DNA of 64,000 bases from Brevinematales bacterium (GTDB taxonomy: Bacteria > Spirochaetota > Brevinematia > Brevinematales > JAOACQ01). A program made the translations under genes and the position numbers. This document shows, in pieces, positions 639 through 19,514 of this stretch. A model generated the notes under the pieces. The model searched no databases. It was not told the origin of the DNA and saw only the letters and a list, made by a program, of their open reading frames with translations. Positions within the stretch are counted from its first letter, which is position 1, and every line of letters starts with the position of its first letter. The stretch spans positions 73,108-137,107 of the forward strand of contig JBBFLL010000002.1 in the NCBI GenBank assembly GCA_037479045.1, read 5' to 3'.

Positions 639-654
639 CTTTCCCTCCAAAAAT

Positions 655-1875: not shown

Positions 1876-1884
1876 AGGCTTTCC

Positions 1885-3117
1885 TCAAAGTTCTCGTAAT
1901 ATTTCAACTGAACTTATCTGTCTAAGTTTTCTTATTATCATCAATATATTTGAAAAGATCATCATCAAAATAATTAGCAATGTGATCAATAATGTTGACG
2001 AATGCCCCTGGATTGTTAATCTCTGAGCACCAAATATAAATTGAAGTGGTATTATATTGGCTTCTATTCCGGATTTTTCCATAAGAGATGTTAAAAAGTT
2101 TCCAGAAACCACACCCATTATGCTAAATGTGAGTATAACTATCATAAACTCTCCCCCCAGAAGCGTTGCAATTCTATGGACTTTTACTCCCATTGCATGA
2201 TAAATCCCAATTTCCTGCAAACGGCTATCAATAGAAAGATAAATCAAAAACGATCCACATGCATAGATTAAAGTAAGTAAAACTATAAGGACACCTATAA
2301 TTACAATGGAAGTAATACTTGATATTCCACTTAAAAGTGAGGCAGAAGCAAGCGGGAATATGAATTTATATTGTTTCCCAAATTCCTTTTCAACCTCATG
2401 AATCAAAGTTTTTTTATAGGATTTATCTTTTAACTTTACCCATATTTCACTGGCAACAGGTTCGGTTGTTCCAAGAAGCTGATTTAAAAAGTCAAGATGA
2501 ACAAAACAATATAAGGCAAACTCAGAGTATATCTCCATATTGACGTAATCCAGTAGACCCGTAAGTCTGACAGTATCAAAATTAATGTACCCATCAAGAT
2601 TTTGAAGGCCAATTCCTAAAATCTCACCCTGTGTGAGATATAGATAATCTGAATGTCTGTAATACATCATTGCATCTGAAAGATTACATAACCACAGTCC
2701 TGCAAAAAGTTTCCTTCCGGGCAAAAGCAATTTCTCACTCTCAGGATCTACCCCAACAAGTATCATATATGCATCATTGTGTTCTGATTTAATATATGCC
2801 CATTTTCTCAATCTTGGTGAAGCAGAAACAACATAATCTTTACTCTTAAGAAAATTCCATAGCTTTTGCCAGGAAGGTAGTGTCTCAACCTTTTTTTCTC
2901 CATCCATAGTTATAATATCTATATGCTTTTTCTTTTCCGGAATTATTATGACATCAGAAGTAAGGCTTTGAATGGCAGAATTTTCTAAGGAATTTTTCAC
3001 AGAGAGTAAAATATTTATAGCTACTACAAGATAGAGAGTAAAAATAAAAATCATTATCCCCAGCAAACTGAAAAGGAAAATATGCTTTCTTATATTTGAC
3101 AAAATTAGCTTAATCAT
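1885..3117 (-). CDS. ABC transporter permease, FtsX/MacB/LolCE-type
   Basis: 410 aa with the same architecture as 655-1875. 4-nt overlap with the upstream gene (3114-3117). Confidence 0.7.
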   Translation of the reverse strand: MIKLILSNIRKHIFLFSLLGIMIFIFTLYLVVAINILLSVKNSLENSAIQSLTSDVIIIPEKKKHIDIITMDGEKKVETLPSWQKLWNFLKSKDYVVSASPRLRKWAYIKSEHNDAYMILVGVDPESEKLLLPGRKLFAGLWLCNLSDAMMYYRHSDYLYLTQGEILGIGLQNLDGYINFDTVRLTGLLDYVNMEIYSEFALYCFVHLDFLNQLLGTTEPVASEIWVKLKDKSYKKTLIHEVEKEFGKQYKFIFPLASASLLSGISSITSIVIIGVLIVLLTLIYACGSFLIYLSIDSRLQEIGIYHAMGVKVHRIATLLGGEFMIVILTFSIMGVVSGNFLTSLMEKSGIEANIIPLQFIFGAQRLTIQGHSSTLLITLLIILMMIFSNILMIIRKLRQISSVEILREL

Positions 3118-3995
3118 AATCCAATTCTTACTCCTGCATCCACATAAACCGATGATGATAAAACATTCATTCCAAATTCAAGATTTATGTTAAGTAAAGC
3201 AAGCATAATTTCAATTCCACCTGAAAGCACAAGTCCTTGAATTTCTTTACTACTGGAATTAACAGTTTTCTCAATGAGATTTTCAACCTCTAAAAAACTA
3301 TCCATTTTTCCCCACATATAAGTATAGTTTAACCTTGCATAGCTATTTAAGAAGAAAAAGGACTTTTCAAAAATCACTTCTACAGAAGGGCCATGATAAC
3401 TTCCATCAAAACCAAACTTTGCGTTATATTGGTTTCCGTCAATTGAAATTTCCCTGCTTTTACTATAATTTCCAGTCCAGTAATTATAACCCAAGCCAGT
3501 TTTTACTCCTATATAGATAGAGTTTTCTTCAGTAAGTTCATAAAGGATGCTTCCCCCGGCCCCAAGAGTTGTAGGACTAATATTTTCACTTCCCATCCAG
3601 CCCTTCACGTAGGTTGTCAAAAGCCATCTTGAAGGAAACATCAATATGAAATTTCCAGATATTAATGGCCATTTAAGACACGGCATTTCAAAAAGTCTTC
3701 TGTAGTCAAGTAAAGTAAAATTATTATCAAATGTATCAAATAGAGAAGAATTTACTTCACTGTACGAAATATTAAAAGAAAAAGATAAGTTCTCCTCACT
3801 CTGTAAATAAATTGAACCATTCTTTTTTACAGTAAGAATGGATGGGATACTTGCCTGTATAGTAGAATTTAAAGTACTTAAAAAAGAGTCTTTCTCTCCA
3901 CGCAACGTATCTATGTCAGAAGTCCATCCGAAAGGTAGAAAACTTGAAACTAATACTATTGATATAATTATCTTTTTCATAAAATTCCTCCTCAT
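3114..3995 (-). CDS. Secreted protein, putative outer-membrane beta-barrel (family not recognised)
   Basis: 293 aa. Signal peptide MKKIIISIVLVSSFLPFGW. Gly/Tyr/Ser/Asn-rich alternating pattern. 4-nt overlap with the upstream gene. Confidence 0.4.
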   Translation of the reverse strand: MRRNFMKKIIISIVLVSSFLPFGWTSDIDTLRGEKDSFLSTLNSTIQASIPSILTVKKNGSIYLQSEENLSFSFNISYSEVNSSLFDTFDNNFTLLDYRRLFEMPCLKWPLISGNFILMFPSRWLLTTYVKGWMGSENISPTTLGAGGSILYELTEENSIYIGVKTGLGYNYWTGNYSKSREISIDGNQYNAKFGFDGSYHGPSVEVIFEKSFFFLNSYARLNYTYMWGKMDSFLEVENLIEKTVNSSSKEIQGLVLSGGIEIMLALLNINLEFGMNVLSSSVYVDAGVRIGL

Positions 3996-5113
3996 TCCTT
4001 AACTGTCCAGGACATCTGTGGAAATGGTTTGTTATTTACATTTCCAAGATATATTGCCACTGTGATTGCACCACTTTTATTCTGTGCAAGTCCAATATCA
4101 AACCTTAAAATGGTTGCTAAACTTTCCATAATGTATATTCCCAGCAAAGGTGCAACATAAAAGCCATAGGCATAAGAAGGTGTGGTATCATAATTTCCTG
4201 CAAGATTACCATTTATACCGACAAGGAAACCGGGTATCAGTTTGATACTGTATGAGGCCAGATACCAGAATGGCGGTGTATAGAAGTAGAAGCCACCCAT
4301 CGGAGAGTAATATCTGAGTTCGATAGCTGTCCAGCCGACATAATCTCCTACCATAGAAGGTCCACCAATTGAATAAGTGGAAAATTTATAAGGTCTTGGT
4401 ATTGTTCCAATTCCTCCTGTTCCTTTCAAGTAGAAAGAAAGTGTCCACCAACCTCCAAGTGAGAAAAGTAACTGGGATTCAGCTTCCAGACTTGTAAAGT
4501 TTGTTCGTTCCAAAACCCAGTTTTCTGAAATACCGAGAGAGAGATACACACCCTTATGCGGATATGTAGGGACATATCCCTCATACCAGATATCGAAATC
4601 AGAACGCCTCGAGTTAAAAGATAAAGCCGCAGTAGTTTTTACAATTCTGTAGTTGTATTCCTTAAACTCGTTAATATTAGTTAAGAGAAGGTTTTGAATG
4701 TAATTAGCTCCGATGTTTAAGCCACAGTATGAAAGGAAAGTTGAATTTAAAGACATTCCAATGCTGTCATAACTCTGAGGATAGTACAAATAGCTGGCAA
4801 CACCTTCCTTATTTGAAAGGACAGTAGCACTACCAATATAATGCTGTGCATTATAAAACAAATGCAGGTAGGGACCTTCTTTCAGTAGATTGTAAAAACC
4901 CCCATCAATTCCAAATTGAGAATGATACTCCAGAAATTTTTCCACACCGAAAGAAGGTAAATATGAAACTGACAAAAAGCTTTGTGGAACTCTGCTACTT
5001 TCAACTGGTTTTTCTTCTTGATTCGTCAGAGAAAATACTGTGCCATATTCTTGATGTAAAATGAAAATCAAGAATATCAAAAGTATTTTTTTTCTTCTCA
5101 TATTTTTCTCCAC
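3992..5113 (-). CDS. Putative Omp85-like outer-membrane barrel without POTRA domains
   Basis: 373 aa with a signal peptide, aromatic/Gly-rich. The segment YSIGGPSMVGDYVGWTAIELRYYSP resembles the conserved GG...RGY...ELR region of Omp85/'bacterial surface antigen' barrels (memory-based). Confidence 0.4.
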   Translation of the reverse strand: MEKNMRRKKILLIFLIFILHQEYGTVFSLTNQEEKPVESSRVPQSFLSVSYLPSFGVEKFLEYHSQFGIDGGFYNLLKEGPYLHLFYNAQHYIGSATVLSNKEGVASYLYYPQSYDSIGMSLNSTFLSYCGLNIGANYIQNLLLTNINEFKEYNYRIVKTTAALSFNSRRSDFDIWYEGYVPTYPHKGVYLSLGISENWVLERTNFTSLEAESQLLFSLGGWWTLSFYLKGTGGIGTIPRPYKFSTYSIGGPSMVGDYVGWTAIELRYYSPMGGFYFYTPPFWYLASYSIKLIPGFLVGINGNLAGNYDTTPSYAYGFYVAPLLGIYIMESLATILRFDIGLAQNKSGAITVAIYLGNVNNKPFPQMSWTVKE

Positions 5114-5124
5114 TTTTTTATATT

Positions 5125-6078
5125 TTATTCTATCCCAAGTCTTTTAAAACACACTTGCTCGACCCATTCTTTATTAAGCCTTCTTGTCACATCAGACCAG
5201 TTCGTAAATTCTTCATAGGTATCAAGAACCGAAACCTCCGCACTTTCTCTACTTCTTCTTACTACAAGTCTACTTTCTTTATCTATCCAGTATATGCAGA
5301 ATTTGCTAAGCGTTCTACCCATAAGAAGTCTCAAAAGAAAATCTTCTGTATCCATCACTACTTTTATCGTATCATAAGTCTTGTAAGTAGTTTCAATTTT
5401 TTCTTCTTTTTCAATTTTTAGTCTACCAATAACTGGTGTCCTGAGAACATTAGGAGAAACAAATTGAGCCATACCACCCTTTTGAATATCCAGAAAACCA
5501 ATAGGAAAAGACATCGTAGCAGCAACATAGTTGAAAAAAGGTAGATTTTTATCTACTTTTGTCCTCCCTTTTTGGATTTTTGTTTCATATCCGTTCCATA
5601 TACCCCACTCAGATTCATAAATTCCACTTGACTCATCAAAGAATTCATGATGATACATCCATTGGCCAGCACTGTTTTTTGCCCTTCTGTTTGAAAAAAC
5701 AGCGTCGTATTTTATCACTTGAAGTTTCTCAAGATCAATAAGTTCAACGCTATCAAATTTATCAAGACTTTCGGGAAGAAAGGCTTGGGATTTAATGTCT
5801 TTAGCGTAAGAAGTATAATAGAAACTTCTACCATATATTCTAAGATAGCATTTATTATCAGTCTCTTCTTTTATCCATACATAGTGTTGATAACCTATGT
5901 GCATCCCAGCCATATCGTATAAAGAATAACGTATATAGGCTTTAGATGATAATAAGTTTTTATTAATTAGCAATATACCTTCTTTTGAATAAATAAAATT
6001 AGAAAGAAATAGCTGAGTTGAAAAAATAATTGAAAATCCAACAAAATTTTTCAGTTTTTTGATTATCATTATTAACAT
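5125..6078 (-). CDS. Secreted protein, paralog A of a 3-member family (function unknown)
   Basis: 317 aa with an N-terminal signal-like segment. About 90% identical by eye to 12879-13826, including a 173-nt perfect DNA match. C-terminus is NKEWVEQVCFKRLGIE. Confidence 0.75.
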   Translation of the reverse strand: MLIMIIKKLKNFVGFSIIFSTQLFLSNFIYSKEGILLINKNLLSSKAYIRYSLYDMAGMHIGYQHYVWIKEETDNKCYLRIYGRSFYYTSYAKDIKSQAFLPESLDKFDSVELIDLEKLQVIKYDAVFSNRRAKNSAGQWMYHHEFFDESSGIYESEWGIWNGYETKIQKGRTKVDKNLPFFNYVAATMSFPIGFLDIQKGGMAQFVSPNVLRTPVIGRLKIEKEEKIETTYKTYDTIKVVMDTEDFLLRLLMGRTLSKFCIYWIDKESRLVVRRSRESAEVSVLDTYEEFTNWSDVTRRLNKEWVEQVCFKRLGIE

Positions 6079-6133
6079 TCTCCTTTTCTCTAATATGATT
6101 TTTTCAATTACACAAGTTGTTATACAAAAACTT

Positions 6134-7069
6134 TCAATCTACCCCAAGTTTCTTAAAACACACCTGCTCGACCCATTCTTTATTAAGCTTTTCTGCCACA
6201 TCAGACCAGTTAGTAAACTCTTCGTATGCATCAAGAATTAAGTATTCTGAATTATTCTTATTAATTTTAACCACCATTTTTGTGTTTTTATCTATCCAGT
6301 AGATACAAAATTCCCTCGCCCATCTTCCAGCCATCAGACGAAGTAAAAAATCATGTACATCTGTCCCCAGCTTAATCGTATCAAATTCTCCCAGGACTGT
6401 ATTGATTTTTTCCTCTTTTATTATTTTGAAACTTCCAATAACAGACTCTTTAAAGTACTCAGGAAATGCAAATTGAAATTTTCTTTTGCCTGAAAAGTCA
6501 GTAAACCCAACTGGAAATCTCATACTTAATGCCGTGTAGTTTAAAACAGGTAATGATAAATCCACTTTTGTTCTACCTTTAAAAATCTTCATTTCATAAC
6601 CATTCCACATACCATATTCTGTCTCAAAAAAAGAATTTGATATATCTAATCTATCACTTATGTACATATATTGACCTCGACCTATTTTCTCTCTGCTGTT
6701 AGAATAGACTCCTCTCTCTTCTATTACCTGTGATTTTTCCAGATCTATTATGGCAAATGTTTGAAAACCTTCTAATTTCTCAGGCAAAAAGGCGTGTGAT
6801 TTCTTATCTTTTGCATAGGAGGAATAGCAGAAAATATTTTCATATATCTTAAGATAATTTTTCTCGTTTTCTTTTTCTTTTACCCATACATGATGAGCGT
6901 ACCCTGTGAGTTTGCCGCTTAAATCATAGAAGCCATATCTTAAATAAGCTTTCTCGGGAATTGAATCTACATTTAAAAAAGACTGATTTTTGTTGAGTTC
7001 TTGACCGCCAGATCTCTGAAAAAGGAGGATTAAACAGAATGAAAAAAGAAGTAATCTTACTATAAACAT
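6134..7069 (-). CDS. Secreted protein, paralog B of the same family (more divergent)
   Basis: 311 aa. Signal peptide MFIVRLLLFSFCLILLFQRSGG. Alignable end to end with paralogs A and C (YLRYGFYDLSG..., MWNGYEMKI.KGRTKVD, CIYWIDK, NKEWVEQVCFKKLGVD). Confidence 0.75.
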   Translation of the reverse strand: MFIVRLLLFSFCLILLFQRSGGQELNKNQSFLNVDSIPEKAYLRYGFYDLSGKLTGYAHHVWVKEKENEKNYLKIYENIFCYSSYAKDKKSHAFLPEKLEGFQTFAIIDLEKSQVIEERGVYSNSREKIGRGQYMYISDRLDISNSFFETEYGMWNGYEMKIFKGRTKVDLSLPVLNYTALSMRFPVGFTDFSGKRKFQFAFPEYFKESVIGSFKIIKEEKINTVLGEFDTIKLGTDVHDFLLRLMAGRWAREFCIYWIDKNTKMVVKINKNNSEYLILDAYEEFTNWSDVAEKLNKEWVEQVCFKKLGVD

Positions 7070-7119
7070 TTTCCTGATTTCTCCTTAAATATTTTAAATA
7101 ATCGATTATTTTTTTATTT

Positions 7120-7128
7120 ATTATAACA
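7120..7128 (-). promoter_or_regulatory. Possible extended -10 element (TGTTATAAT on minus strand) in the 193-nt gap upstream of paralog B
   Basis: Revcomp of 7120-7128 is TGTTATAAT. No good -35. This is the largest intergenic gap inside the cluster downstream of its 16164-16342 leader. Confidence 0.3.
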
Positions 7129-7262
7129 GAGCAAGAGATATATTCAGCATCATTTTTAACGACCTTAAAAATACCAATCCTAATATATCTTTACAAAACT
7201 CACATAAGTTCTTTGTATAAAGTATTAACACAATAAACCAGAATTTTCAACTAAAAACTATA

Positions 7263-8687
7263 TTACTTTTCTTTGAGTGCTGGTTTAATATTGTAAGTTC
7301 TTTCTGGAAGATAAAATCCAGAACCAGCAGGAAAATAATAAACATTTGTAATTTTGCCATTTTCATCAAAATAAAGTTGCTCCTTTGAAATATCAGATAA
7401 AGGAGCAAAAATCTCTACATCAGGTAGTTCTTTATGTATCATATTAGCAATATTAGCCCCTTTCTCTCCTCCTTTCCCTGCCGAGCAACTGGATATAACT
7501 ATAACACTATTGGTTGAAAATAACCCTTTGATAGATTTTAATTTTTCTCCATCATTTAAATCCAAAATTTCTTCATCTTTGTATTGATATTCTGTATTAC
7601 TTAACCTGAACATATCAATATTAGTTCCAGCTTTCCAGAATACTATTCTTCCCTCTCTACCATGACCATTTATCAACAATACATCAATCGACTGAAATAA
7701 TGCAGCATCTTTAATTGAATTAACAAATTCTATATCAGATTTTACCTGATAATAACTAACCCTGTACCCATTACTTGAAAGCTCCTCTACATTATGGACT
7801 CTAAAATCTATATCTGCTCTATTTCCAACAAATCCCGTATCAATAATTACTGAAAGTGGTTGAAAATTATCTTTCTGAGGAGATATTCTTTGTCTTGTTG
7901 CAATATCAAAGATTCTCTTATTATAAAATTTGAATGGATTAATAAAACCAAGTTTTGAAATAAGTTTCTCAAAATCATTTAGATTTTCCTTATTTACCGA
8001 AGTCAAAAGTTTCTTCTCAAACGAAGGAAAATAGATAACGAAAGGATTTACAGTAAAAGCTTTATTTACAAAGTCTTTATCTTTCAAGAGAGTTGAGGAA
8101 GCATACCGAAGATACCACCAATCTTCTTTCAAAAGGACAAGAAATAGATTCTTATCTTTCTTTAAAGTAGATTTTTCTTTATTGCCAGCAAAGTCAATTA
8201 TAGCTGGATTATACTTTATACATTCATATAAAAACTTCTTGCTATTTTTGAAACTTTCATCTGCATACTTCAAAGCAACAGGATTATTTTTAACCGCCTC
8301 CAGAACTATTTCCTTGTTTCTCCTTAAACTAAAATCTGCATATTCAAGTGAACTCCCTTCATTTTTTACAGCAAGAAATACTATTTCCTTGTCCTTTTTC
8401 AAGTTTGAAGATGCAAATTTCAGTGCCTTGCCGTTTTTGTTTACTGCAGTTTTTACTATCTCCTTATTACTTTGCCAGTTAGAACCTAAAAAACGAAGAC
8501 TCATAGGATCAATATCAATAACATTTAAAATAAAATCCTTGTCTTTTTTAAAATCTTCAGGAATATCCAAAACTGAAATTTCTCCGTTAGACAATGCCTT
8601 TATTAAGCTTTCTTTGTCAGTATTTTGCTCAGTACTCCAGATTAATCTTCCACATATAAGCAGAAGTATAAAAAAGATTACTTTCAT
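7263..8687 (-). CDS. Secreted DUF4116-repeat protein with a C-terminal domain carrying a His...Cys dyad (possible clan-CD/CHAT-like peptidase)
   Basis: 474 aa with a signal peptide. At least 4 repeats of the pattern KDKEIVxxAVKNNGxALKYAxxxLK, typical of DUF4116. The C-terminal ~190 aa contains LLINGHGREG and VIVISSCSAGKGG. Confidence 0.5.
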   Translation of the reverse strand: MKVIFFILLLICGRLIWSTEQNTDKESLIKALSNGEISVLDIPEDFKKDKDFILNVIDIDPMSLRFLGSNWQSNKEIVKTAVNKNGKALKFASSNLKKDKEIVFLAVKNEGSSLEYADFSLRRNKEIVLEAVKNNPVALKYADESFKNSKKFLYECIKYNPAIIDFAGNKEKSTLKKDKNLFLVLLKEDWWYLRYASSTLLKDKDFVNKAFTVNPFVIYFPSFEKKLLTSVNKENLNDFEKLISKLGFINPFKFYNKRIFDIATRQRISPQKDNFQPLSVIIDTGFVGNRADIDFRVHNVEELSSNGYRVSYYQVKSDIEFVNSIKDAALFQSIDVLLINGHGREGRIVFWKAGTNIDMFRLSNTEYQYKDEEILDLNDGEKLKSIKGLFSTNSVIVISSCSAGKGGEKGANIANMIHKELPDVEIFAPLSDISKEQLYFDENGKITNVYYFPAGSGFYLPERTYNIKPALKEK

Positions 8688-9943
8688 ATTGCTTTCTCAA
8701 CCTCTTTGTTTTTTTCACCGAAAACTAATTTAAAAAACTTTAAAAGTAAAAATATTAGATATGAAAATCCCCCAATCCATATTCCTGAATTTCTTAGAAA
8801 TATATTAAAAGTCTTTATATTTTCACCTTTTATTCCCGAAGATACAAGTGTTAATAATGGTTTCCATATGTAACTATCCAGATTCAATGTAATCTTAATC
8901 CAATTAATGTAAAATCCACTGAGAAAAGAAAACATAAAAAAGTAAAAAATGAAAAGATAAATAATTACAAATCTTTGAATCGATGGGGGATAAGAAGAAA
9001 AGGGAGATTTTTTCTCCTTTTTAACTATACTTTTTATCCAGTTTTTAATTTTTGTTTGCAAGCTTACAATTCCAAGAATATCGCTTAAAAACCAGTAGCC
9101 ATCCATTTTTAAAAATGGATTGAAAGTAGAAATGCTGAAAAGTGGAAAGAGTATTAAATAATCCTTTATTGCACCTGATTGGGTCAGAAAAAATGTAAAG
9201 AACAATGGAAGGAGAAAAATGAGTTCGAAATAAAAACCAGCAATTGAAACAATAGCTCTTTCCTTGCGAGGTAAATTCCAGGATTCATGAGTGTCTGTGT
9301 ACATTACAAACATAAAATAGTAAAATCCAAAGCCTATCCCATCTTTTGAAGGAACATTGTATTTTGCCAAAGCCACTGCATGACCCATTTCGTGAAAAAC
9401 TGTTTTGAAATATGGATAGATTACAAAGATTATAAAGTAATCCCATATCCCATAATACTTGATTGTTATATGTTTTGAAAAAAAAGAAAAATAGAATAAA
9501 AAAGCTTCGAGCAGACAAAATAAAGTTGTTACTCCAATTACAACTGGTTTTTTAAGAAAAAATTCAAAAATCTTCAAAAATCCAGCAAGTTTTGAAATAT
9601 CAAAAAGCTTTATTCTTAACCAGAAGTTTTCCATTCTGTTTCTAAAAGTAAAGTTTTCTTCTTTCTCTTTGAAATTGAAAGTTAAAAGTTTTTTTTGTTC
9701 TAAAAGATTTAAAACATTCTGTACAGACTTTTCATCTATTCCTAACTCTTCTCCTATTACCTTTCGAATTTCAGTGACTACCCCTCCCTCTTTTTTTTCT
9801 AAAAGGCTGATAAATTTTCTTACATTGCTATTTATTTCTACGTCACCAAGAGAAAAAGTAACTCTATATCTGATTTCATTTGAACTGGTATCGAGTGGAG
9901 AGATTTTGTAATTCCTTAAATAAACTTTATCATCATCCCTCAT
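8684..9943 (-). CDS. Polytopic membrane zinc metalloprotease (HExxH, M50-like) with an N-terminal PqqD/RRE-like domain
   Basis: 419 aa. FHEMGHAVAL (HExxH), then NPFLKMDGYWFLSD (M50-type N..P...DG motif), and multiple TM helices. N-terminal ~90 aa (NVRKFISLLEKKEGGVVTEIRKVIGEELGIDEKSVQNVLNLLEQKKLL) matches the PqqD-like winged-helix pattern. 4-nt overlap with the downstream gene. Confidence 0.6.
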   Translation of the reverse strand: MRDDDKVYLRNYKISPLDTSSNEIRYRVTFSLGDVEINSNVRKFISLLEKKEGGVVTEIRKVIGEELGIDEKSVQNVLNLLEQKKLLTFNFKEKEENFTFRNRMENFWLRIKLFDISKLAGFLKIFEFFLKKPVVIGVTTLFCLLEAFLFYFSFFSKHITIKYYGIWDYFIIFVIYPYFKTVFHEMGHAVALAKYNVPSKDGIGFGFYYFMFVMYTDTHESWNLPRKERAIVSIAGFYFELIFLLPLFFTFFLTQSGAIKDYLILFPLFSISTFNPFLKMDGYWFLSDILGIVSLQTKIKNWIKSIVKKEKKSPFSSYPPSIQRFVIIYLFIFYFFMFSFLSGFYINWIKITLNLDSYIWKPLLTLVSSGIKGENIKTFNIFLRNSGIWIGGFSYLIFLLLKFFKLVFGEKNKEVEKAI

Positions 9944-11234
9944 TTTTCAATCCTTCAGGTACGATAATCGCATAATTTACAAGATTTTTAAGTATCTCTA
10001 CCAGCTTTTTTTCTGGAATACGCTTTTTCGTTTTAGGACTTACTATTCCTCTCTTTTTTATATCCTCAATAACCATTTTTACACTCTTTTCGGTTTTCAC
10101 AGTAAGAAAAGGATAGAGATTTATTAAGTATAAAGTGTTTTTTTCTTTTCTAAAAAAAACATATGAATGTAGAAAAAATTTATTTTTAATTTCAACTTCA
10201 TAATTCTTCACTTTTTGTTGCCAAATTTCCAATAGTTCCATATCAAAAAATCTGAAAAAGAAAAAAACTTCTTTCAATTGCCTTCCATCCCATCCCAAAC
10301 ACTTTTTTCTAAGATTTTCATATAATAAGTTATATATAGTATTGCATAGTAACTGCCCTGTTTCGTTAAAGCTTAACATAGGTTTAAATTCAAAAATTTC
10401 TCCAATACTAAATAGGATTTTACCATTAAACTTTGGAAGTGTCATTATTGGTACTACAGGAGAACACGTCATTAAATGTAATATTGGAAAAATTGAAGTA
10501 ATAACTAAAGACTTTTTCCCATTCATAGTATAAACAAAAAATTTTGCTCTATCTCTATTATAATCACAGAATGCTTTTTTTATATACTCTTGAATCTTAA
10601 CATCGTTATTATCTAAGTTAATTAAGGGTAAATCTCCAAAAATAACAATAGGAAATCCGTTTCTTAATGATTGCAACATATTAAGAGGAAAATTTTTTTT
10701 ATCTTCCAAAAAACAAAAAGAAATAGTTCCAGAAAAATCAGGAAAATTAAAAAATATTCTATCAGACTCCAACTTCACATACTTTTTGTATTTTTCATAA
10801 TGCTTCTGTCTAAAGAGACTTAAAAAATATTTATACACATCACCAGATCTTAGGGCAAGTACATTTATATAACTTATATTCAACTTTTTAATTAGATAAA
10901 AGACGCTTTCCAACATCACTTCACTATGAAAGATAAAAAAGATAGCTGTTTTAAATTCATTTAGTTTTTTGATTGTATCATTTTGAAATATGCAAGTATC
11001 ACTTTCTATCAAAAACCATCGTATTCTTAAATTTGTTAATTTATTTAAAGTTTTAGAAAAACATTTGATTTTTCTATTTTGACTATTAATTATTTTAACA
11101 TTATTAAAAACTCTAAAAAGAAAACTTGCAAACCATAAGTCTTTCAAGCTTTTCTCCGTGTTTTCACTGATATAGTAATATATATAGGTAAAAATAAAAA
11201 AAATTGTGTAGATAATTCTTTTCAGGAACAACAT
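9933..11234 (-). CDS. Hypothetical protein (433 aa), N-terminal TM; possible acyltransferase-like enzyme, unassigned
   Basis: Long ORF with an 11-nt overlap with the downstream protease gene. No motif recognised with confidence. The FHSEVMLE segment only loosely recalls the HX4(D/E) motif of LpxL-type acyltransferases. The C-terminal ~60 aa is again winged-helix/PqqD-like by eye. Confidence 0.55.
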   Translation of the reverse strand: MLFLKRIIYTIFFIFTYIYYYISENTEKSLKDLWFASFLFRVFNNVKIINSQNRKIKCFSKTLNKLTNLRIRWFLIESDTCIFQNDTIKKLNEFKTAIFFIFHSEVMLESVFYLIKKLNISYINVLALRSGDVYKYFLSLFRQKHYEKYKKYVKLESDRIFFNFPDFSGTISFCFLEDKKNFPLNMLQSLRNGFPIVIFGDLPLINLDNNDVKIQEYIKKAFCDYNRDRAKFFVYTMNGKKSLVITSIFPILHLMTCSPVVPIMTLPKFNGKILFSIGEIFEFKPMLSFNETGQLLCNTIYNLLYENLRKKCLGWDGRQLKEVFFFFRFFDMELLEIWQQKVKNYEVEIKNKFFLHSYVFFRKEKNTLYLINLYPFLTVKTEKSVKMVIEDIKKRGIVSPKTKKRIPEKKLVEILKNLVNYAIIVPEGLKNEG

Positions 11235-11341
11235 ATTTCTTCTCCATACTCTACCATTTCCTTAACAAGTTAAACCACACTCTTTTAAAGTTGAAATAAT
11301 AATTTTGAAAATAAAATAATTTTACATTTATATGATAATTA

Positions 11342-12565
11342 TTAGTTAAGATTTTTAAGCAATATAACTGCGTTACTTCCTCCAAATGCAAAGGCATTTA
11401 CCAATGCACAATTTACTTCATAATCTATAGACTCGTTGGCAACATAATCTAAATCACACTCTGGATCAGGTTCATCTAAGTTTATAGTTGGATGTAATTT
11501 ATTTTCTTTCATCTGAATTATAGCTGCTATAGTTGAAATTACCCCACTTGCCCCCATTGTATGTCCAATCATAGATTTTACCGAATTAACCTTTAATTTA
11601 TATGCTTTGTCTTTAAACATATTTTTGATGGCAATTGTCTCTTCAAAATCGTTCACTGGAGTCCCTGTTCCATGTGCTTGAATATAATTTACTTTTTCAA
11701 ACAATTCAGGATAATCCTGAAAACTTTTCTCTATAGCTTTTTCTATTGATTTGTGATTTGTATGAGTGAGATGGGTTGTATCATTTGAATACCCATAACC
11801 ACAAACTTCTGCCAGCGGAATTAAACCAAATTTTTCACAAATCTCTTCTTTTGTAATTATTACTGCTCCAGCACCTTCTCCCAGAACAGTGCCCTTTCGT
11901 CGTTTACTAAAAGGAGAAGGAACTTTGGTCGGATTTTCATTATCCTTTTCGAGAACATTCAACTTATTCCATCCTATTATACTTACTGGGAAAAGAGGTG
12001 TATCCGTTCCTCCAGCAACGACCAGATCAAGAACCCCCCATTTTATAAATAGATACCCCAAGCCTATAGCATGTAAAGAAGAAGAACAAGCTGTATCTAC
12101 AGTAATTGAAAAATCTGAAAGTTTCCATTTTTCCGAAACAAGAGCCGTAGAAGAACACCTCATACTCCGGACTAAAAATAAGGGATTAATAAAATTCTCT
12201 TGTCCCTTATTATAATATCCATAGGTCTTATCCAACGTTTCATTCCCATTGTAACAGGTTCCAATAAAAATTCCTTTTTTTAGTTCTATTCTTTCAAAAA
12301 TAGGATTTAAATTATAAGCCTTTATTGCTTCATTTACAGAATAATCCAGAAAATAAAATGCTCTATCTTCTCGCATCTTTTCAATACCAATTTTTTTTAA
12401 ATCTTTATTTTTGACTTCTCCACCTATTTTCACAGGAATATTAGAATAATCATCATTTTCTAGTTTCGAAATTTGAGAAATTCCAGAAAGAATAGAACGC
12501 GAAAACTCATTGATTCCAAAAGAAGCCGGGCTTAAAACACCCATACCAACGACAAATATTTTCAT
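11342..12565 (-). CDS. Beta-ketoacyl-ACP synthase, FabF/KAS-II-like (cluster-dedicated)
   Basis: 407 aa. Cys-His-His triad motifs DTACSSSLHAIG, AHGTGTPVND and IGHTMGASG, with the C-terminal NAFAFGGSNA. Confidence 0.85.
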   Translation of the reverse strand: MKIFVVGMGVLSPASFGINEFSRSILSGISQISKLENDDYSNIPVKIGGEVKNKDLKKIGIEKMREDRAFYFLDYSVNEAIKAYNLNPIFERIELKKGIFIGTCYNGNETLDKTYGYYNKGQENFINPLFLVRSMRCSSTALVSEKWKLSDFSITVDTACSSSLHAIGLGYLFIKWGVLDLVVAGGTDTPLFPVSIIGWNKLNVLEKDNENPTKVPSPFSKRRKGTVLGEGAGAVIITKEEICEKFGLIPLAEVCGYGYSNDTTHLTHTNHKSIEKAIEKSFQDYPELFEKVNYIQAHGTGTPVNDFEETIAIKNMFKDKAYKLKVNSVKSMIGHTMGASGVISTIAAIIQMKENKLHPTINLDEPDPECDLDYVANESIDYEVNCALVNAFAFGGSNAVILLKNLN

Positions 12566-12570
12566 AATAA

Positions 12571-12822
12571 TTACCCTTGGAAGTTTTCAAGGTATTCCCG
12601 GATTTTTGATATGGTTAGTAAACCAGATGTCTCTTCAGGAGGAAAGTTTATATTAAATTTTTTCTCAATCTCAAATAGAATTTCAAGAAGAGATAATGAA
12701 TCAGCTTTGAGGTCTTCAACAAAATGAGTATTTTCACTGATATCCGCCGGCGATATCTTTAAAATTTCAGCAATTATATTTTTGATTTCCATAATATCCT
12801 TTTCTGAAATTTGCATTTTCAA
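12571..12822 (-). CDS. Acyl carrier protein (cluster-dedicated)
   Basis: 83 aa. Phosphopantetheine-attachment motif LKADSLSLLEI. Lies 5 nt upstream of the KS gene. Confidence 0.8.
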   Translation of the reverse strand: MKMQISEKDIMEIKNIIAEILKISPADISENTHFVEDLKADSLSLLEILFEIEKKFNINFPPEETSGLLTISKIREYLENFQG

Positions 12823-12878
12823 GTTCCTCCTTTTTTACAAAAGTAAAAATATTTCTCTAATTTATCTAATTTATTTTC

Positions 12879-13826
12879 CTACTCGACTCCAAGTCTTTTA
12901 AAACACACCTGCTCAACCCATTCCTTGTTAAGTTTTTCTGCTACTTCAGACCAGTTTGTAAATTCTTCGTAGGTGTCAAGAATCGAAACCTCCGCACTTT
13001 CTCTACTCCTTTTTACTACAAGTCTACTTTCTTTATCTATCCAGTATATGCAGAATTTGCTAAGCGTTCTACCCATAAGAAGTCTCAAAAGAAAATCTTC
13101 TGTATCCATCACTACTTTTATCGTATCATAAGTCTTGTAAGTAGTTTCAATTTTTTCTTCTTTTTCAATTTTTAGTCTACCAATAACCGGTGCCCTGAGA
13201 ATATTAGGAGAAACAAACTGAGCCATACCACCCTTTTGAATATCCAAAAAGCCCACAGGAAAGGACATTGTACCAGCAACATAGTTAAAGAAAGGAAGAT
13301 TTGTATCAACTTTCGTCCTACCCTTTTGGACTTTTGTTTCATATCCATTCCATGTTCCCCACACAGATTCATAAATTCCATTTGACTCATCAAAGGATTC
13401 ATGATGATACATCCATTGGCCAGCACTATTATTTGCCCTTTTGTTTGAAAAAACAGCATCGTATTTTATCACTTGAAGTTTCTCAAGATCAATAAGTTCA
13501 ACGCTATCAAATTTATCAAGACTTTCTGGAAGGAAAGCTTGTAATTTAACATCTTTCGCGTAAGAAGTATAATAGAAACTCCTCCCATATATTTTAAGAT
13601 AGCATTTATTATCAGTTTCCTCTTTTATCCATACATAGTGTTGATAACCCATGTGCTTTCCAGCCATATCGTATAAAGAATAGCGTATATAGGCTTTCAA
13701 AGGTATTAAGTTTGGATTAAGAAACAATTTCTTTATCGATTGAGAATAAGTTGAATTGATAAGAAAAATGTAATTAATCATTACGCAGCATATCAGAAAA
13801 TTAGCCCCTCTTTTTTTAACCAACAT
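12879..13826 (-). CDS. Secreted protein, paralog C of the 3-member family
   Basis: 315 aa. Near-identical to paralog A except for the N-terminal signal region. First gene after the candidate precursor. Confidence 0.75.
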   Translation of the reverse strand: MLVKKRGANFLICCVMINYIFLINSTYSQSIKKLFLNPNLIPLKAYIRYSLYDMAGKHMGYQHYVWIKEETDNKCYLKIYGRSFYYTSYAKDVKLQAFLPESLDKFDSVELIDLEKLQVIKYDAVFSNKRANNSAGQWMYHHESFDESNGIYESVWGTWNGYETKVQKGRTKVDTNLPFFNYVAGTMSFPVGFLDIQKGGMAQFVSPNILRAPVIGRLKIEKEEKIETTYKTYDTIKVVMDTEDFLLRLLMGRTLSKFCIYWIDKESRLVVKRSRESAEVSILDTYEEFTNWSEVAEKLNKEWVEQVCFKRLGVE

Positions 13827-13953
13827 TAGAAATTACCCTCCTTTATTACTATTGCTATACACATATGTTAACACAAACCAAAGAAGAAAGGGGAGATAAA
13901 AATTTTTTTAAAGCTTAGATATATTTAACTTTTTTTTCTTTTATAGCAATCTA

Positions 13954-14055
13954 CTACTCAGCTGCACAACAGTTACCACAACCAGCGCCACCAAAATCTA
14001 CCTTTTCTTCTACTTCTTCAACCTCAAATACTAAATAATCTTGTCTCTCATTCAT
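13954..14055 (-). CDS. Candidate RiPP precursor peptide, 33 aa: MNERQDYLVFEVEEVEEKVDFGGAGCGNCCAAE
   Basis: Hand-translated; too short for the ORF track. The ATG (14055-14053) overlaps the TGA (14054-14052) of the upstream gene as ATGA. GGAGGG lies 5 nt upstream. Acidic leader, Gly-Gly at residues 22-23, and a 10-residue core with 3 Cys. Sits immediately downstream of the rSAM and pseudo-rSAM genes. Confidence 0.65.
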   Translation of the reverse strand: MNERQDYLVFEVEEVEEKVDFGGAGCGNCCAAE

Positions 14056-15020
14056 GGTATCCCTCCTTTCTTATAGATTTCTCCCCTTTCCTCTTTTTTT
14101 ATTACTTTTAAGTATTTTTTTCTTAATAAGCATTCATTTTTTTTGCTACTATTAAGACTTAAACACTTAAGACCATAACAAAACAGAGAAAACTTACATT
14201 CTTTAAGATTATTACACTTCTTTTTCACTGGTTCATAAGAGAGAAGTCTTTCAGGACAATAGTCCTTTTTCCCTATATCATCATAACATACCTTCCTATA
14301 TATAAAAGGACAGATTAGAAAAACTTTATCTTTCAACACATTTTCAAAATTCTCGAAAAACAAATCGCCTTTTCCCCAGCACCCATCCTTAAAGTCTAAA
14401 AAATCACCAATGTTTTCTGGTTTATCAGAAAGAATAACCAGCCTTATATTTGAAAATAAATCTTCCATGCCAAACGGGTTAAAGTTCTCTATTTCATTTT
14501 CGTTTACAGAAAGCCACAAAGCACCTTTTTGAAAACCATACGAATTCACTTTTTTTGCAATTTCAAGCGTTAATTCAAGGTTTTCAAAATCACTCCAGAA
14601 ATTTACTTTTTCAATATTTTCTTCTTTTTTAATTTTTTCAACCCAATTTTTAAGTTTACTTTCATTCCAGCTTACATTTTTTCTTTCTCTTTTTAAATAC
14701 CCCGGCTTTCCAACAAGAAGAAAAACTTCCTTGTAGCTGGTTTTAAGTTTGTTAACTTTGCTTTCAAGAAAAGTCAGAATTTCCCTTTTTTCCTCTTCTT
14801 CGCTGTAGCAGGTTATATACCATTTTTTAAGCCAGTCTGAAATCTCTTTTTCAGAAAAAGGATATCTATTATCAGGCATAAAACTTTCATTTTTATCCTG
14901 GATTTCTTTAAGTGATTTCCATTTTGATAAATCAATTTCTTCAAGTTCACCTGTTATTAGACTCAGAATGAAATACCTTTCATCTTTATTAATTAAAAAA
15001 CAACCTTCTGCAATTCTCAT
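14052..15020 (-). CDS. Maturase-like accessory protein lacking the radical SAM CxxxCxxC motif, with a Cys-rich (9 Cys) SPASM-like C-terminus ('pseudo-rSAM')
   Basis: 322 aa with no CxxxCxxC anywhere. The last ~110 aa contain 9 Cys, including CNNLKECKFSLFCYGLKC. Lies 3 nt downstream of the rSAM gene. Confidence 0.55.
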   Translation of the reverse strand: MRIAEGCFLINKDERYFILSLITGELEEIDLSKWKSLKEIQDKNESFMPDNRYPFSEKEISDWLKKWYITCYSEEEEKREILTFLESKVNKLKTSYKEVFLLVGKPGYLKRERKNVSWNESKLKNWVEKIKKEENIEKVNFWSDFENLELTLEIAKKVNSYGFQKGALWLSVNENEIENFNPFGMEDLFSNIRLVILSDKPENIGDFLDFKDGCWGKGDLFFENFENVLKDKVFLICPFIYRKVCYDDIGKKDYCPERLLSYEPVKKKCNNLKECKFSLFCYGLKCLSLNSSKKNECLLRKKYLKVIKKEERGEIYKKGGIP

Positions 15021-15023
15021 ATT

Positions 15024-16163
15024 CTACAAAGGAATAAGACGGGAGTAGAAAAATCCAATGCCTTTTTCGGTAAGTCTTCCTATTGCTCTTTCCTTTTCAA
15101 TTGCCACAGTACATTTAGTAACAAACCCGTCTGGGCGGATTAAAAATGAGTTTCTTATCTCTGCATCACAATATTTATATTCTCTTTTTAAACCTAAAGG
15201 ACTACTAAAACCTCTCTTTGACAATTCATTTAGAAGGAATTTTTCTACACTAGAATTAATTTTGTAAGTACAGTTACTTTCATTATCTTTATTCCCATCC
15301 CAGTCTTCAGTACACGAAGAATATATATCTCTAAAGTAAATATCAACTCTATCCTTAAATTTCTTGAAGATGTCAAAGATTGAAAGAATTTCATTTAGTT
15401 CAGTTTCTTCTCCGCTGTGGATGTGAATTCTAACTGCTATCTTATTCAAAGGATTTGCTTCTAAGAAATTAGTCACGTTTTTTATAATTGTATCAAAGGT
15501 AGGCTGTCCCCCAACAAGAGTTCTCATTTTGTTATGTCTTGTCTTACCACCATCAAGTGTAAAGTGAACATCTCTTAATTGAATTTTATCGAAAATATTG
15601 ATTATTTTATCATTGAGGAGAACTGCATTTGTAGTTATTCCAGTATTAAATTTTATCTCCCATTTTTTTGAAATATCTACAGCAAAAGTACCTATCTCTT
15701 CAATTATTTCAGGCATCAAGAGTGGCTCACCACCGAACCAGCTTATTCCAAGAAAATTAAGGGTCTTAGCTCTGTTTTCAATTAACTTACAGATATTTTT
15801 GACAACATCATATGACATTCTCTCCTCAGGATGAATCTCATAACAATACGGACAACGACAGTTACAATTCAGGGTGGGAACTATTGTAAGGATCAGCTTA
15901 TCTATCCTGTAAATATCCTGATTGCGTAACTCCAGAAGAAGATTATATTCATCAATGTTATCTGGAATGAGTAATTTACCATCAACAAGTTTTTTATAAA
16001 TCTTTGCGTCTTTATTGGAAACTACATCTTCCGGATTACTTAAAATTTTTATTACATCTTCTTTCCATTCGAGTGGAAAAGATGTATAGCTATTCCCAAA
16101 CCAGGAATACAGGACATACTCATTCTCTGTTAAGAAATCGACAAAATAATTTGTTGACTTCAT
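15024..16163 (-). CDS. Radical SAM peptide-maturase-type enzyme (anSME/SPASM-twitch family-like)
   Basis: 379 aa. CNCRCPYC contains CX3CX2C. Also WFGGEPLL (GGE motif), ITTNAVLL and HFTLDG. The C-terminal region has 4 Cys, including YCDAEIRNSFLIRPDGFVTKC, typical of an auxiliary-cluster domain. SD GGGGGA precedes the ATG. Confidence 0.8.
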   Translation of the reverse strand: MKSTNYFVDFLTENEYVLYSWFGNSYTSFPLEWKEDVIKILSNPEDVVSNKDAKIYKKLVDGKLLIPDNIDEYNLLLELRNQDIYRIDKLILTIVPTLNCNCRCPYCYEIHPEERMSYDVVKNICKLIENRAKTLNFLGISWFGGEPLLMPEIIEEIGTFAVDISKKWEIKFNTGITTNAVLLNDKIINIFDKIQLRDVHFTLDGGKTRHNKMRTLVGGQPTFDTIIKNVTNFLEANPLNKIAVRIHIHSGEETELNEILSIFDIFKKFKDRVDIYFRDIYSSCTEDWDGNKDNESNCTYKINSSVEKFLLNELSKRGFSSPLGLKREYKYCDAEIRNSFLIRPDGFVTKCTVAIEKERAIGRLTEKGIGFFYSRLIPL

Positions 16164-16311
16164 TCCCCCGACCTTTTTTAATTCTTAAGTTAATATTCTT
16201 TATTTCAAACTTTTTATATTGTTTTAAATTAAATTTTTACACCTTTTACTAAAACTACCAGAAATTTTTCCTCAATTTTGAAATTTTTTATAAAAATTTT
16301 TTTGTTTTATC

Positions 16312-16342
16312 ATTATACATCTGGGGGGGGGTGGATTGTCAA
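16312..16342 (-). promoter_or_regulatory. Sigma70-type promoter for the rSAM operon: TTGACA-N19-TATAAT, with the homopolymer tract inside the spacer
   Basis: Revcomp of 16337-16342 (tgtcaa) is TTGACA. Revcomp of 16312-16317 (attata) is TATAAT. The spacer 16318-16336 is 19 nt and includes nine consecutive C on this strand. The rSAM ATG is ~150 nt downstream. Confidence 0.6.
16323..16331. repeat. Homopolymeric G9/C9 tract
   Basis: Nine consecutive G on the + strand in an otherwise extremely AT-rich intergenic region. Confidence 0.95.
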
Positions 16343-16545
16343 GGTTTTTTGGAAAAATTTAAAAATTTTTTATAATTTTTATATTTGAAAAAGTAATTAA
16401 ATTGTTTTATATTAAAATAATTATAAAAAGGAGAATAAATTTAATTTATTATTTTTAAAAAGATTAAATATCTTATAGAGAGAATAGGATATCTTGACTT
16501 AGTTAGATTTAATTTTACCTTTTTAATTTACAGAATAATTGTTAA

Positions 16546-16710
16546 AAAACCCAATACAGATTTTCTGACTACATAACGGCAAATCTTTACGGAAGATTTG
16601 TGTTTAACCAGTATGCAGATGTTGCCCCACTCGAAAATAGTGTTCGCAAAACCTACTTCGATCCAGGTTATGGACTACAGATTGGGATTGACTTAAGAAT
16701 TACCTTCTAA
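16546..16710 (+). pseudogene. Relic of the C-terminal ~54 codons of an outer-membrane beta-barrel protein gene (no start, no N-terminal part)
   Basis: Frame open only from 16546. Translates to KTQYRFSDYITANLYGRFVFNQYADVAPLENSVRKTYFDPGYGLQIGIDLRITF*, with alternating-hydrophobic terminal strands ending in Phe, an OMP C-terminal signature. Locally higher GC than the flanking spacer. The stop codon overlaps the prfA stop convergently. Confidence 0.45.
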
Positions 16711-17768
16711 CCAAGATTTTTGAGTAATTCCTGCTGTTCATTCATAATGCAGGCGTTGATAAGTTCATCACAATCCCCATCAAGAATCAAATCAAGTTTA
16801 TAAAGAGTTAAGTTTATTCTATGGTCTGTAACCCTGTTCTGGGGAAAGTTATATGTTCTTATTTTGTCGGATCTGTCTCCACTTCTGATTGAGGTTTTCC
16901 TTATCTGACTTTGTTCTTCTATTTTTTTCTGCATTTCCATATCAAATAGCTTTGATCTTAAAATTCTTAATGCTGTAGCTCTATTTTGGAGCTGAGATCT
17001 TTCTTCCTGACAGGCAACTACAATGCCAGTGGGGATATGGGTTATTCTGACAGCCGATTCAGTCTTATTAACATACTGTCCACCTGCACCACCAGCTCTG
17101 AAAGTATCAATTTTTAAGTCTTTTGGGTCTATTGCTATGTCAACTTCGTCAACTTCTGGAAGAACAACTACCGAAGCTGTTGAAGTATGAATTCTGCCAC
17201 CTGCTTCAGTTACTGGAATTCTCTGAACTCTGTGAACACCCGATTCATACTTGAGATGTGCATAAACATCTTTACCTTTTATAGAAAAAACTACTTCTTT
17301 ATAGCCGCCGAGTTCTGTTGGATTAAAGTCAAGCACTTCATATTTCCACTTTTTCCTTTCTGCATATCTTGTATACATTCGGAATAAATCTCCAGCAAAG
17401 ATTGCTGCTTCTTCTCCACCAGTTCCAGCCCTTATTTCTACTATAACATTTTTTGTTGCCATTTCATCTTTTGGAAGAAGGAGTAATAAAATTTCATTTT
17501 CAAGCTCTTCCTTTCTTTTCTTTATGTTTTCAATATCTTCTTTTGCTATTTTTTTCAGTTCTTCATCTTCTTCTGAATTGATTAATTCAAATAAGTCTTT
17601 TTCTTCCTTTTCGAGTTTGCCAAATTCTCTATACTTATCAACCAGTTCCTCAAGTTCGCTTCTTTCTTTTGCAACCTTTATGTATTCACTACTACCAGGC
17701 GGTAATTCTGATAGCCTTTTTTCAAGCTCTTCGTATTTCTTGATTAATTCTAAGGCTTTTGGGTGCAT
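16707..17768 (-). CDS. prfA: Peptide chain release factor 1
   Basis: 353 aa. GGQ motif (AGGAGGQYVNKTESAVRITHIPTG), PVT tripeptide (RF1-type PxT) and a typical RF1 N-terminus. Confidence 0.95.
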   Translation of the reverse strand: MHPKALELIKKYEELEKRLSELPPGSSEYIKVAKERSELEELVDKYREFGKLEKEEKDLFELINSEEDEELKKIAKEDIENIKKRKEELENEILLLLLPKDEMATKNVIVEIRAGTGGEEAAIFAGDLFRMYTRYAERKKWKYEVLDFNPTELGGYKEVVFSIKGKDVYAHLKYESGVHRVQRIPVTEAGGRIHTSTASVVVLPEVDEVDIAIDPKDLKIDTFRAGGAGGQYVNKTESAVRITHIPTGIVVACQEERSQLQNRATALRILRSKLFDMEMQKKIEEQSQIRKTSIRSGDRSDKIRTYNFPQNRVTDHRINLTLYKLDLILDGDCDELINACIMNEQQELLKNLG

Positions 17769-17781
17769 ACTATCTCCTTAA

Positions 17782-19506: not shown

Positions 19507-19514
19507 ATTATTCC

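Follow-up and report, generated by a model that had tools for sequence, protein, structure and literature searches.

Recent gene conversion between paralogous genes for putative periplasmic barrel proteins in an exporter-linked gene island of a Brevinematales bacterium

Introduction

How do two paralogous genes lying some 7 kb apart come to share a long stretch of DNA letter for letter, and what kind of protein do they encode? The question is raised by a locus of an uncultured Brevinematia/Brevinematales bacterium, known from a metagenome-assembled genome with WHS77 locus tags (WHS77_01440, WHS77_01445), and specifically by a 64,000-nucleotide (nt) stretch of contig JBBFLL010000002.1 (assembly GCA_037479045.1, positions 73,108 to 137,107). 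This whole stretch is called the window here and is numbered from its first letter. A first inspection of its sequence (the original prediction) had proposed three paralogous open reading frames (ORFs), and these are indeed present, all on the minus strand, as are the other genes of the region, and 311-317 amino acids (aa) in length. Copy A (5125-6078) encodes 317 aa from the first ATG, is given in public records as 314 aa with a start at 6069, and specifies a predicted exported DUF3108-like barrel protein. Copy B (6134-7069, 311 aa) is a divergent paralogue placed in tandem with A on its upstream side. Copy C (12879-13826, 315 aa) lies between a 33-aa precursor ORF and genes for an acyl carrier protein (ACP) and a beta-ketoacyl synthase (KS), and it is the donor in the conversion event described here. 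A fourth paralogue was not found within the window.

Results

The exact identity between A and C, reported at first as 173 nt (5261-5433 and 13015-13187), holds and extends to 175 nt, positions 5259-5433 of A being the same as 13013-13187 of C. When the 68 differences between the two genes were permuted over the 816 core sites, an identical run of 175 nt was obtained in 0 of 20,000 trials (p<5e-5). A Sawyer-type test of the 337 sites that are polymorphic among A, B and C, in which A and C agree at 68 consecutive sites, gave the same outcome (0 of 20,000 permutations, p<5e-5). A formal test for gene conversion had been suggested together with the original prediction, and by both measures of run length the A–C block stands far outside chance expectation.

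The polarity of the event is evident from other assemblies that carry the same gene island, namely GCA_049968535.1 (L001), GCA_964632035.1 (L002) and GCA_017880035.1 (contigs L003 and L013). Across most of the island the window matches L001 at 99.95% identity, and C is nucleotide-identical in four assemblies (window, L001, L002 and L003). The A gene of the window differs from that of L001 and L002 at 12 sites, 11 of which fall at 5299-5423, inside the 175-nt block, and at 12 of 12 the window has the base that is found in C. The 11 block differences carried by L001 and L002 include synonymous ones. Contig L013, which comes from a more distant strain (its housekeeping flank is 96.5% identical), also keeps the A-specific bases, and because it shares the unconverted state, the A-specific state is ancestral, the window allele is derived, and sequence has passed from C to A. 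In L001 the longest identical run between A and C is 68 nt (p~0.05). These data directly support a recent, non-reciprocal gene conversion that is specific to the lineage of the window, with C as donor (13013-13187) and A as recipient, and with a tract of at least the 125 nt spanned by the informative sites 5299-5423 and at most the 175 nt of 5259-5433. Copy B was considered as the source of the L001-type A allele and rejected, since it matches just 4 of the 11 A-specific bases.

Beyond this tract the three genes show a segmented pattern of identity. A and C had been described as nearly identical at the nucleotide level, which is fair for the part from codon ~44 on, where they share about 93% of nucleotides overall (82-100% along the gene), and overstated for the whole genes, which in a codon alignment are 86% identical in nucleotides and 83% in amino acids. 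By the same alignment A–B and B–C share ~60% of nucleotides and 49-53% of amino acids. The signal-peptide and linker region of A (5944-6078), codons 1 to ~43, is unalignable with its counterparts in C (13698-13826) and B (6953-7069), nucleotide identity being 37-56% in all pairs, in agreement with the differing N-termini noted originally. The homogenised core of A (5218-5943; 12972-13697 in C) begins at about codon 43 and ends some 30 codons short of the stop. The tail, made up of the last 30 codons and the stop (5125-5217 in A, 6134-6226 in B, 12879-12971 in C), encodes a C-terminal helix; over these last ~30 codons A–C identity falls to 80% of nucleotides and that of A–B and B–C climbs to 83-88%, so that B is more divergent except at its 3' end, as had been observed. 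The tail motif NKEWVEQVCFK[RK]LG[IV][ED] is invariant or nearly so across the three copies. The copies cease to be homologous past their stop codons, and neither their upstream nor their downstream flanks are related. Rfam and tRNA scans of the window returned no matches, and an RNA element therefore does not explain the conservation of the 3' ends; counts from a promoter and terminator scan were at chance level.

Nei-Gojobori estimates of nonsynonymous (dN) and synonymous (dS) divergence, made for each region and pair, indicate an older layer of exchange beneath the recent tract. In the core, A and C have dN 0.035 and dS 0.26 (dN/dS 0.13, purifying selection), and A–B and B–C have dN ~0.43 with saturated dS. 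Over the last 29 codons dS is 1.3 for A–C, 1.4 for B–C and 0.30 for A–B, and in the signal region dS exceeds 1 and dN is 0.7-1.1 in all pairs. A–C divergence is 7% in the core versus 19% in the tail (Fisher p=4e-4). Different segments thus have different closest pairs, A–C in the core and A–B in the tail, with saturation in every pair over the signal region, and every assembly shows this mosaic, in which the core contrasts with signal region and tail. Because the three dS patterns differ, a single date of duplication cannot account for them. Where the original prediction had allowed for "very recent duplication or ongoing gene conversion", the strain comparison sustains conversion, and the mosaic dS speaks against a simple recent duplication. 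Read most simply, A and B would be the tandem pair, as the tail still records, and an earlier conversion by C would have replaced codons ~44-285 of A; this older event is less firmly established than the recent one because its tail estimates come from 29 codons.

A neighbour-joining protein tree gives 100% bootstrap support to the grouping of A with C, to that of A, B and C, and to a clade that adds P0005, the closest outside relative (33% identity). The tree places A, B and C together to the exclusion of all outside relatives, indicating that they arose by duplication within the lineage. The alternative notion of C as an ancient orthologue of P0007, which is also linked to ACP and KS genes, finds no support in this tree, where A, B and C are monophyletic.

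The family relationships of these proteins are distant. Word-indexed protein searches returned proteins of the same species plus two distant members only, and a full HMMER search of 1.84 billion cluster representatives yielded 73 remote relatives of 270-300 aa. The DUF3108 model is matched by 26 of 58 aligned relatives at E<=0.01 and DUF3108_like by 7 of 58, over profile positions ~80-200. By inspection the relatives carry signal peptides or lipobox-like cysteines. Searches of A, B and C with the LolA, LolB and LolA_like models of Pfam and NCBIfam gave no sequence match. A first structure prediction from a 5-sequence alignment had a mean predicted local distance difference test score (pLDDT) of 43.9 and was discarded; with the relatives' alignment, AlphaFold produced a confident model (pLDDT 90.6, predicted template-modelling score 0.87) consisting of an N-terminal helix at residues 3-27 that corresponds to the signal peptide, ~15 beta-strands and a C-terminal helix at 292-312. 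When the model was compared with PDB structures by Foldseek, a probability of 0.97 was assigned to 4fvs, 2in5 (YmcC), 2zf4 (VioE) and 3fzx, although with TM-scores of only 0.24-0.39, and a sequence profile independently picks 4fvs (E=0.017). Structure prediction, which had been proposed at the outset, thus provides a confident model with weak matches to barrels of the YmcC/DUF3108/VioE type. DUF3108 has been described as having the YmcC fold (PMC4364669). Almost nothing was found in the literature on the function of DUF3108, TP0789 or PF17131.

The profile matches and the model together suggest a distant relationship in which A, B and C form a divergent sister branch of the DUF3108/YmcC-like barrels, and not members of the family by the Pfam criterion. 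The C-terminal helix is common to P0005, P0006 and P0007 and absent from typical DUF3108-type relatives; in the model it is amphipathic and would mark the A/B/C branch. DUF3108 (PF11306) and DUF3108_like (PF21347) proteins, including the solved structures 3fzx (BF2203), 4fvs (BDI_3050) and 2in5 (Escherichia coli YmcC), are likewise exported all-beta barrels of 200-300 aa, but A, B and C exceed these structures in length by ~100 aa and have the clade-specific C-terminal helix. The earlier view of a lipid-binding barrel whose family could not be assigned can be revised in part: the DUF3108 matches and the model are consistent with a barrel and allow a distant DUF3108 relationship to be assigned, and lipid binding stays a proposal.

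Two cysteines, Cys259 in FCIYWID and Cys308 in the C-terminal helix (EQVCFK; numbering of C), are invariant in A, B and C, and P0005, P0006 and P0007 lack both. A disulfide between the two may anchor the C-terminal helix to the barrel.

The genomic context of A and of its relatives is dominated by exporter genes. In the window these occupy 1-5113, downstream of A, and are syntenic with L004, L005, L008, L011 and L013. As the original prediction had it, A and B precede genes for barrel-like, potentially outer-membrane, proteins: two such genes (3992-5113 and 3114-3995) follow directly, A lying 11 nt upstream of the first, and after them come two FtsX/MacB-type permeases (1885-3117 and 655-1875) and a TP_0789-like (LolA-like, PF17131) protein (1-638) that runs off the window. 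Contig L013 continues past the LolA-like gene with a 409-aa protein and then an ATP-binding cassette (ABC) ATPase.

Similar gene sets accompany the relatives in four other spirochaete lineages. In L004 and L005, the loci of P0005, the order is homologue, barrel, barrel, FtsX, FtsX, TP_0789-like/LolA-like protein, 404-aa protein and ABC ATPase. Identities to the window are 47% and 32% for the barrels, 40% and 39% for the FtsX proteins and 60% for the TP_0789-like/LolA-like protein, and the single homologue takes the same position as A, in a locus without radical S-adenosylmethionine (rSAM), KS or ACP genes. L008 reads M50-like, DUF4116, DUF2807, barrel, barrel, FtsX, FtsX, LolA-like, 415-aa protein, ABC ATPase and homologue. 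L011, from an uncultured Spirochaetota, reads FtsX, FtsX, LolA-like, 416-aa protein, ABC ATPase and two tandem homologues that are 37% identical, with a third 9 kb away, and L009 reads barrel-like, barrel-like, homologue, ACP and KS. The linkage of homologue and exporter survives this shuffling of gene order in five lineages and constitutes, by gene order and sequence similarity, the strongest evidence about a likely function. Because the exporter genes of L004 lack peptide genes, a role specific to a peptide product is not required. The L011 homologues (tandem pair at 12964-14726, third at 3294-4133) further indicate that gene multiplication at the exporter locus recurs, there without homogenisation. 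Alignments of DUF3108-like proteins contained no stretch conserved enough for a search for related loci, and searches with P0005 in genome contigs and with copy A in Joint Genome Institute (JGI) metagenome contigs found nothing.

The remainder of the island lies upstream of B and around C. A DUF4116-repeat protein (7263-8687) is followed, in order of increasing position, by an HExxH intramembrane metalloprotease that resembles M50 and daptide-type enzymes (8684-9943), a 433-aa protein not assigned to a family (9933-11234), the KS (11342-12565; Pfam ketoacyl-synt) and the ACP (12571-12822; Pfam PP-binding), this last pair lying directly downstream of C. C itself directly follows the precursor, as had been noted: this candidate is a 33-aa Cys-rich ORF, MNERQDYLVFEVEEVEEKVDFGGAGCGNCCAAE, at 13954-14055, directly upstream of C and called as a gene in L002 and L003. 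Farther upstream are a 322-aa Cys-rich protein, also not assigned to a family (14052-15020), and a maturase of radical SAM/SPASM type (15024-16163), which contains an rSAM domain and whose NCBIfam matches are all below cut-off.

The maturase gene of the window is missing 201 nt (67 codons, in frame) at 15027/15028 by comparison with L001 (8599-8799), L002 and L003. The deletion removes the last 67 aa, including the C-terminal CKDCKFLPYCWGQC SPASM-type cysteine motif, leaving 379 versus 446 aa. Either the maturase may be inactive in the window strain or the deletion may be an assembly error. In the DUF4116-repeat protein a C-terminal domain of ~200 aa has no Pfam match and contains the motifs LINGHGREG and ISSCSAGKG, which by eye resemble a caspase/CHAT-type His/Cys dyad; judged from these motifs the protein could be the leader peptidase.

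Several features bear on the history of the island. A stretch of 183 nt that takes in the 3' end of prfA and the sequence immediately after it (16547-16729 in the window, 4243-4425 in L003, 6897-7079 in L001) is repeated directly, at 98.9% identity, at 15108-15290 of L013, right after the ABC ATPase gene and overlapping the 3' end of a convergent gene for 1858 aa. Because these direct repeats stand at both ends, the whole cluster from rSAM gene to ATPase has the appearance of an island that was inserted between the two copies of a duplicated target. Relative to GCA_017880035.1, the island part (11582-16347) is 99.7-100% identical and the housekeeping genes (16343-20972; prfA, an ABC transporter and others) are 96.5% identical, with the change at ~16345, a contrast suggesting that strains have recently exchanged the island. 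Between the DUF4116 gene and B, the window has a spacer (7073-7228) that is unalignable with those of L001 (16599-16913), L002 and L013 and ~160 nt shorter than theirs; the longer form includes a GC-rich palindrome, CTCGCAATGACA...TGTCATTGCGAG, as well as a called ORF of 58 aa, and may be a small mobile repeat element. In L003, transposase genes (rve-type and IS1595/InsA-like; 4687-5975 and 8988-9635) have inserted in the interval separating prfA from the rSAM gene and within the gene for the 322-aa protein, and the KS gene sits at the contig break. The island may be decaying in the strain of GCA_017880035.1, an assembly that is rich in indels and whose frameshifts are unreliable. A 171-aa truncated A found there (P0081) was considered as evidence of pseudogenisation and is distrusted, given 35 gap openings in 5.7 kb.

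Discussion

In sum, our reading, which we hold to be somewhat more probable than its negation, is that A, B and C represent an exported branch of DUF3108/YmcC-like proteins that serve as accessories of a Lol/MacB-like exporter and as periplasmic carriers, and that the core of A was overwritten by conversion from C. Several observations weigh against it. The converted A allele is known from one assembly only, that of the window, and an exact look-up of this allele in public records found no second source. The tail dS is drawn from 29 codons only, a thin signal. A, B and C themselves match neither Pfam (at E<=0.1) nor NCBIfam; their relatives score 14-26 bits against the DUF3108 models, all under the gathering threshold (26 or 27 bits); and the fold matches are weak, with TM-scores of 0.24-0.46. 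The signal peptides were judged by eye, from N-termini that are basic and then hydrophobic, and from model helix 3-27. Finally, the exporter genes of L004 occur without rSAM or KS/ACP genes.

With regard to function, a carrier, a chaperone or an immunity protein had been suggested. The DUF3108 matches, the barrel model and the exporter linkage are consistent with a carrier, and immunity is disfavoured; a periplasmic cargo carrier or accessory of the Lol/MacB-like exporter is the most likely role that we infer from sequence and model. In such a mechanism A, B and C would be exported to the periplasm by means of their N-terminal signal peptides, would there bind a hydrophobic and probably acylated product, and would pass this cargo from the ABC transporter or the LolA-like protein to the outer-membrane barrels. 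In this island it would presumably be an acylated compound derived from the 33-aa precursor. All three copies may dock on one partner through the C-terminal helix that they share. In their evolution, the mature part of A is repeatedly overwritten by C, and the signal-peptide regions and flanks stay distinct.

A bolder version of the carrier hypothesis, which we regard as fairly unlikely as it stands, is that the three barrels, the LolA-like protein, the FtsX/ABC components and the two outer-membrane barrels make up a Lol-like relay that carries to the outer membrane or cell surface not lipoproteins but a fatty-acylated peptide cross-linked by the rSAM enzyme, that is, a lipidated ribosomally synthesized and post-translationally modified peptide (lipo-RiPP). 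Conversion would then keep the cargo-binding cores of C and A alike and leave their signal peptides and expression contexts separate. If true, such a relay would be a previously undescribed route of natural-product export and would supply a functional reason for concerted evolution.

Instead of acting as carriers, A, B and C might serve the two outer-membrane barrels as partners, plugs or assembly factors. Lipoproteins of the YmcC/GfcB/YjbF type are encoded beside outer-membrane barrels in polysaccharide-secretion operons of E. coli. By analogy, the Foldseek matches to YmcC (2in5) and YmcC-like 3fzx, the 11-nt distance between A and the first barrel gene, and the recurrence of homologue–barrel–barrel in L004/L005 and barrel–barrel–homologue in L009 would all fit a barrel partner. 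However, two homologues follow the ABC ATPase in L011, where a homologue of either barrel was not detected within 10 kb, and five genes intervene between homologue and barrels in L008. In addition, A, B and C were seen by eye to have no canonical lipobox. For these proteins a barrel-partner function appears rather unlikely.

Could the three proteins instead confer immunity by sequestering the peptide product of the island in the periplasm? Multiple copies and rapid turnover are common among immunity genes, and A, B and C are likewise multi-copy, with C encoded directly after the precursor ORF. Yet immunity is disfavoured because homologues occur with exporter genes where peptide genes are absent: the closest outside homologue (L004/L005) and those of L011 sit with the exporter and have no rSAM, precursor, KS or ACP genes nearby. 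The core is, moreover, under purifying and not diversifying selection (dN/dS 0.13). We consider this function quite unlikely.

Turning to the identity itself, an artefact of assembly or polishing could have threaded C sequence into A without any biological conversion, and an assembly error had been named at the outset as the explanation that would overturn the finding. In its favour are the occurrence of the converted allele in one assembly, the odd 201-nt in-frame deletion in the rSAM gene of that same assembly, and the existence of a contig, L012, that is a perfect mosaic of A and C ending in unrelated sequence, from which it is clear that these paralogues can be mis-assembled. Against it, the informative sites that bracket the left-hand change from A to C state are only 10 nt apart (alignment columns 651 and 662), and since a path switch in a de Bruijn graph needs a shared k-mer of at least 21 nt, a chimera of this type is unlikely. 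Reads from C would map better to C, as they would have 11 mismatches per 125 nt against A, so mis-mapped polishing is unlikely as well, and the older mosaic is seen in all assemblies. On these grounds we judge an artefact very unlikely to be the source of the identity.

Contig L012 (ENA ERZ511474 NODE_71576; 1756 nt, 2x coverage) joins the upstream flank of A to the ACP and KS that lie downstream of C. Its sequence follows A at 1-493, C at 494-524 (31 nt), A at 525-885 and C at 886-1677, and then continues for 78 unrelated nt. Its switch points lie within identical runs of 68, 31 and 34 nt, and a chimera formed at low k is therefore possible; the contig may be a low-coverage assembly chimera. 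If it is real, the polarity of its A5'/C3' hybrid fits a duplication or the junction of an excised circle, and not a deletion. Deletion of the intervening ~7 kb through the repeats, which the original prediction had raised, is not seen in the window, L001 or L002, all of which keep the 7.7-kb interval. Since these paralogues yield mosaic contigs in low-coverage assemblies, annotation of the island and variant calling need read-level checks.

The idea that A and C are a simple recent duplicate pair, identical in the block by chance or through strong purifying selection, is highly improbable, for although they are each other's closest relatives in the tree and the part of the barrel that the block specifies is well conserved, selection on protein leaves synonymous differences of the kind other strains show among their 11 in the block, the run is longer than in all 20,000 permutations, the ~five-fold difference in dS between the core and the signal region or tail cannot come from one duplication date, and the strain comparison already contradicts it.

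For the gene conversion reported here, the comparison of strains identifies donor and recipient, gives the direction and delimits the tract, and it does so in a little-studied class of uncultured spirochaetes, Brevinematia. The exporter linkage, together with the presence of ACP and KS genes in two lineages, gives this branch of DUF3108 a first functional context and leads to the hypothesis that it handles lipidic cargo in the periplasm.

The gene content of the island may be compared with clusters for hybrid fatty-acyl/polyketide RiPPs such as the lipolanthines and goadvionins. Those clusters likewise have a small precursor ORF with a peptide-modifying enzyme, ACP and KS, proteases and an exporter. 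The island differs in having no lanthipeptide enzymes, a maturase of the rSAM/SPASM type and no identified acyltransferase. To our knowledge, DUF3108-like proteins are not known parts of lipolanthine- or goadvionin-type clusters.

A second comparison is with LolA/LolB and LolCDE. The gene neighbours of A, B and C likewise include two FtsX-type permeases, an ABC ATPase and a LolA-like (PF17131, TP_0789-like) protein, and like LolA and LolB they are predicted to be barrel-type periplasmic proteins; VioE, whose fold is LolA-like, is a weak structural match. Unlike Lol, their gene set includes two barrel-like proteins and, in this island, rSAM, precursor, ACP and KS genes; we know of no Lol operons with barrel, rSAM, precursor, ACP or KS genes.

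Concerted evolution of bacterial paralogues by gene conversion is familiar from tufA/tufB in enterobacteria and, in spirochaetes, from the tpr and vls families. With these the A/B/C genes share non-reciprocal transfer between dispersed paralogues, mosaic identity, unrelated flanks and tracts that vary among strains. They differ in that no sign of programmed antigenic variation is seen here, the copies number only three and silent cassettes are absent. Purifying selection acts on the core, the tract of 125-175 nt is a short one, and the donor sequence does not vary. Conversion among paralogues in bacteria, DUF3108 as a catalogued family and exporters of the Lol/MacB type are already known; neither the mechanism nor any of the parts is new in kind, and current understanding is not overturned. 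What is new is their combination, the uncurated clade in which they occur, and a conversion event that is well resolved.

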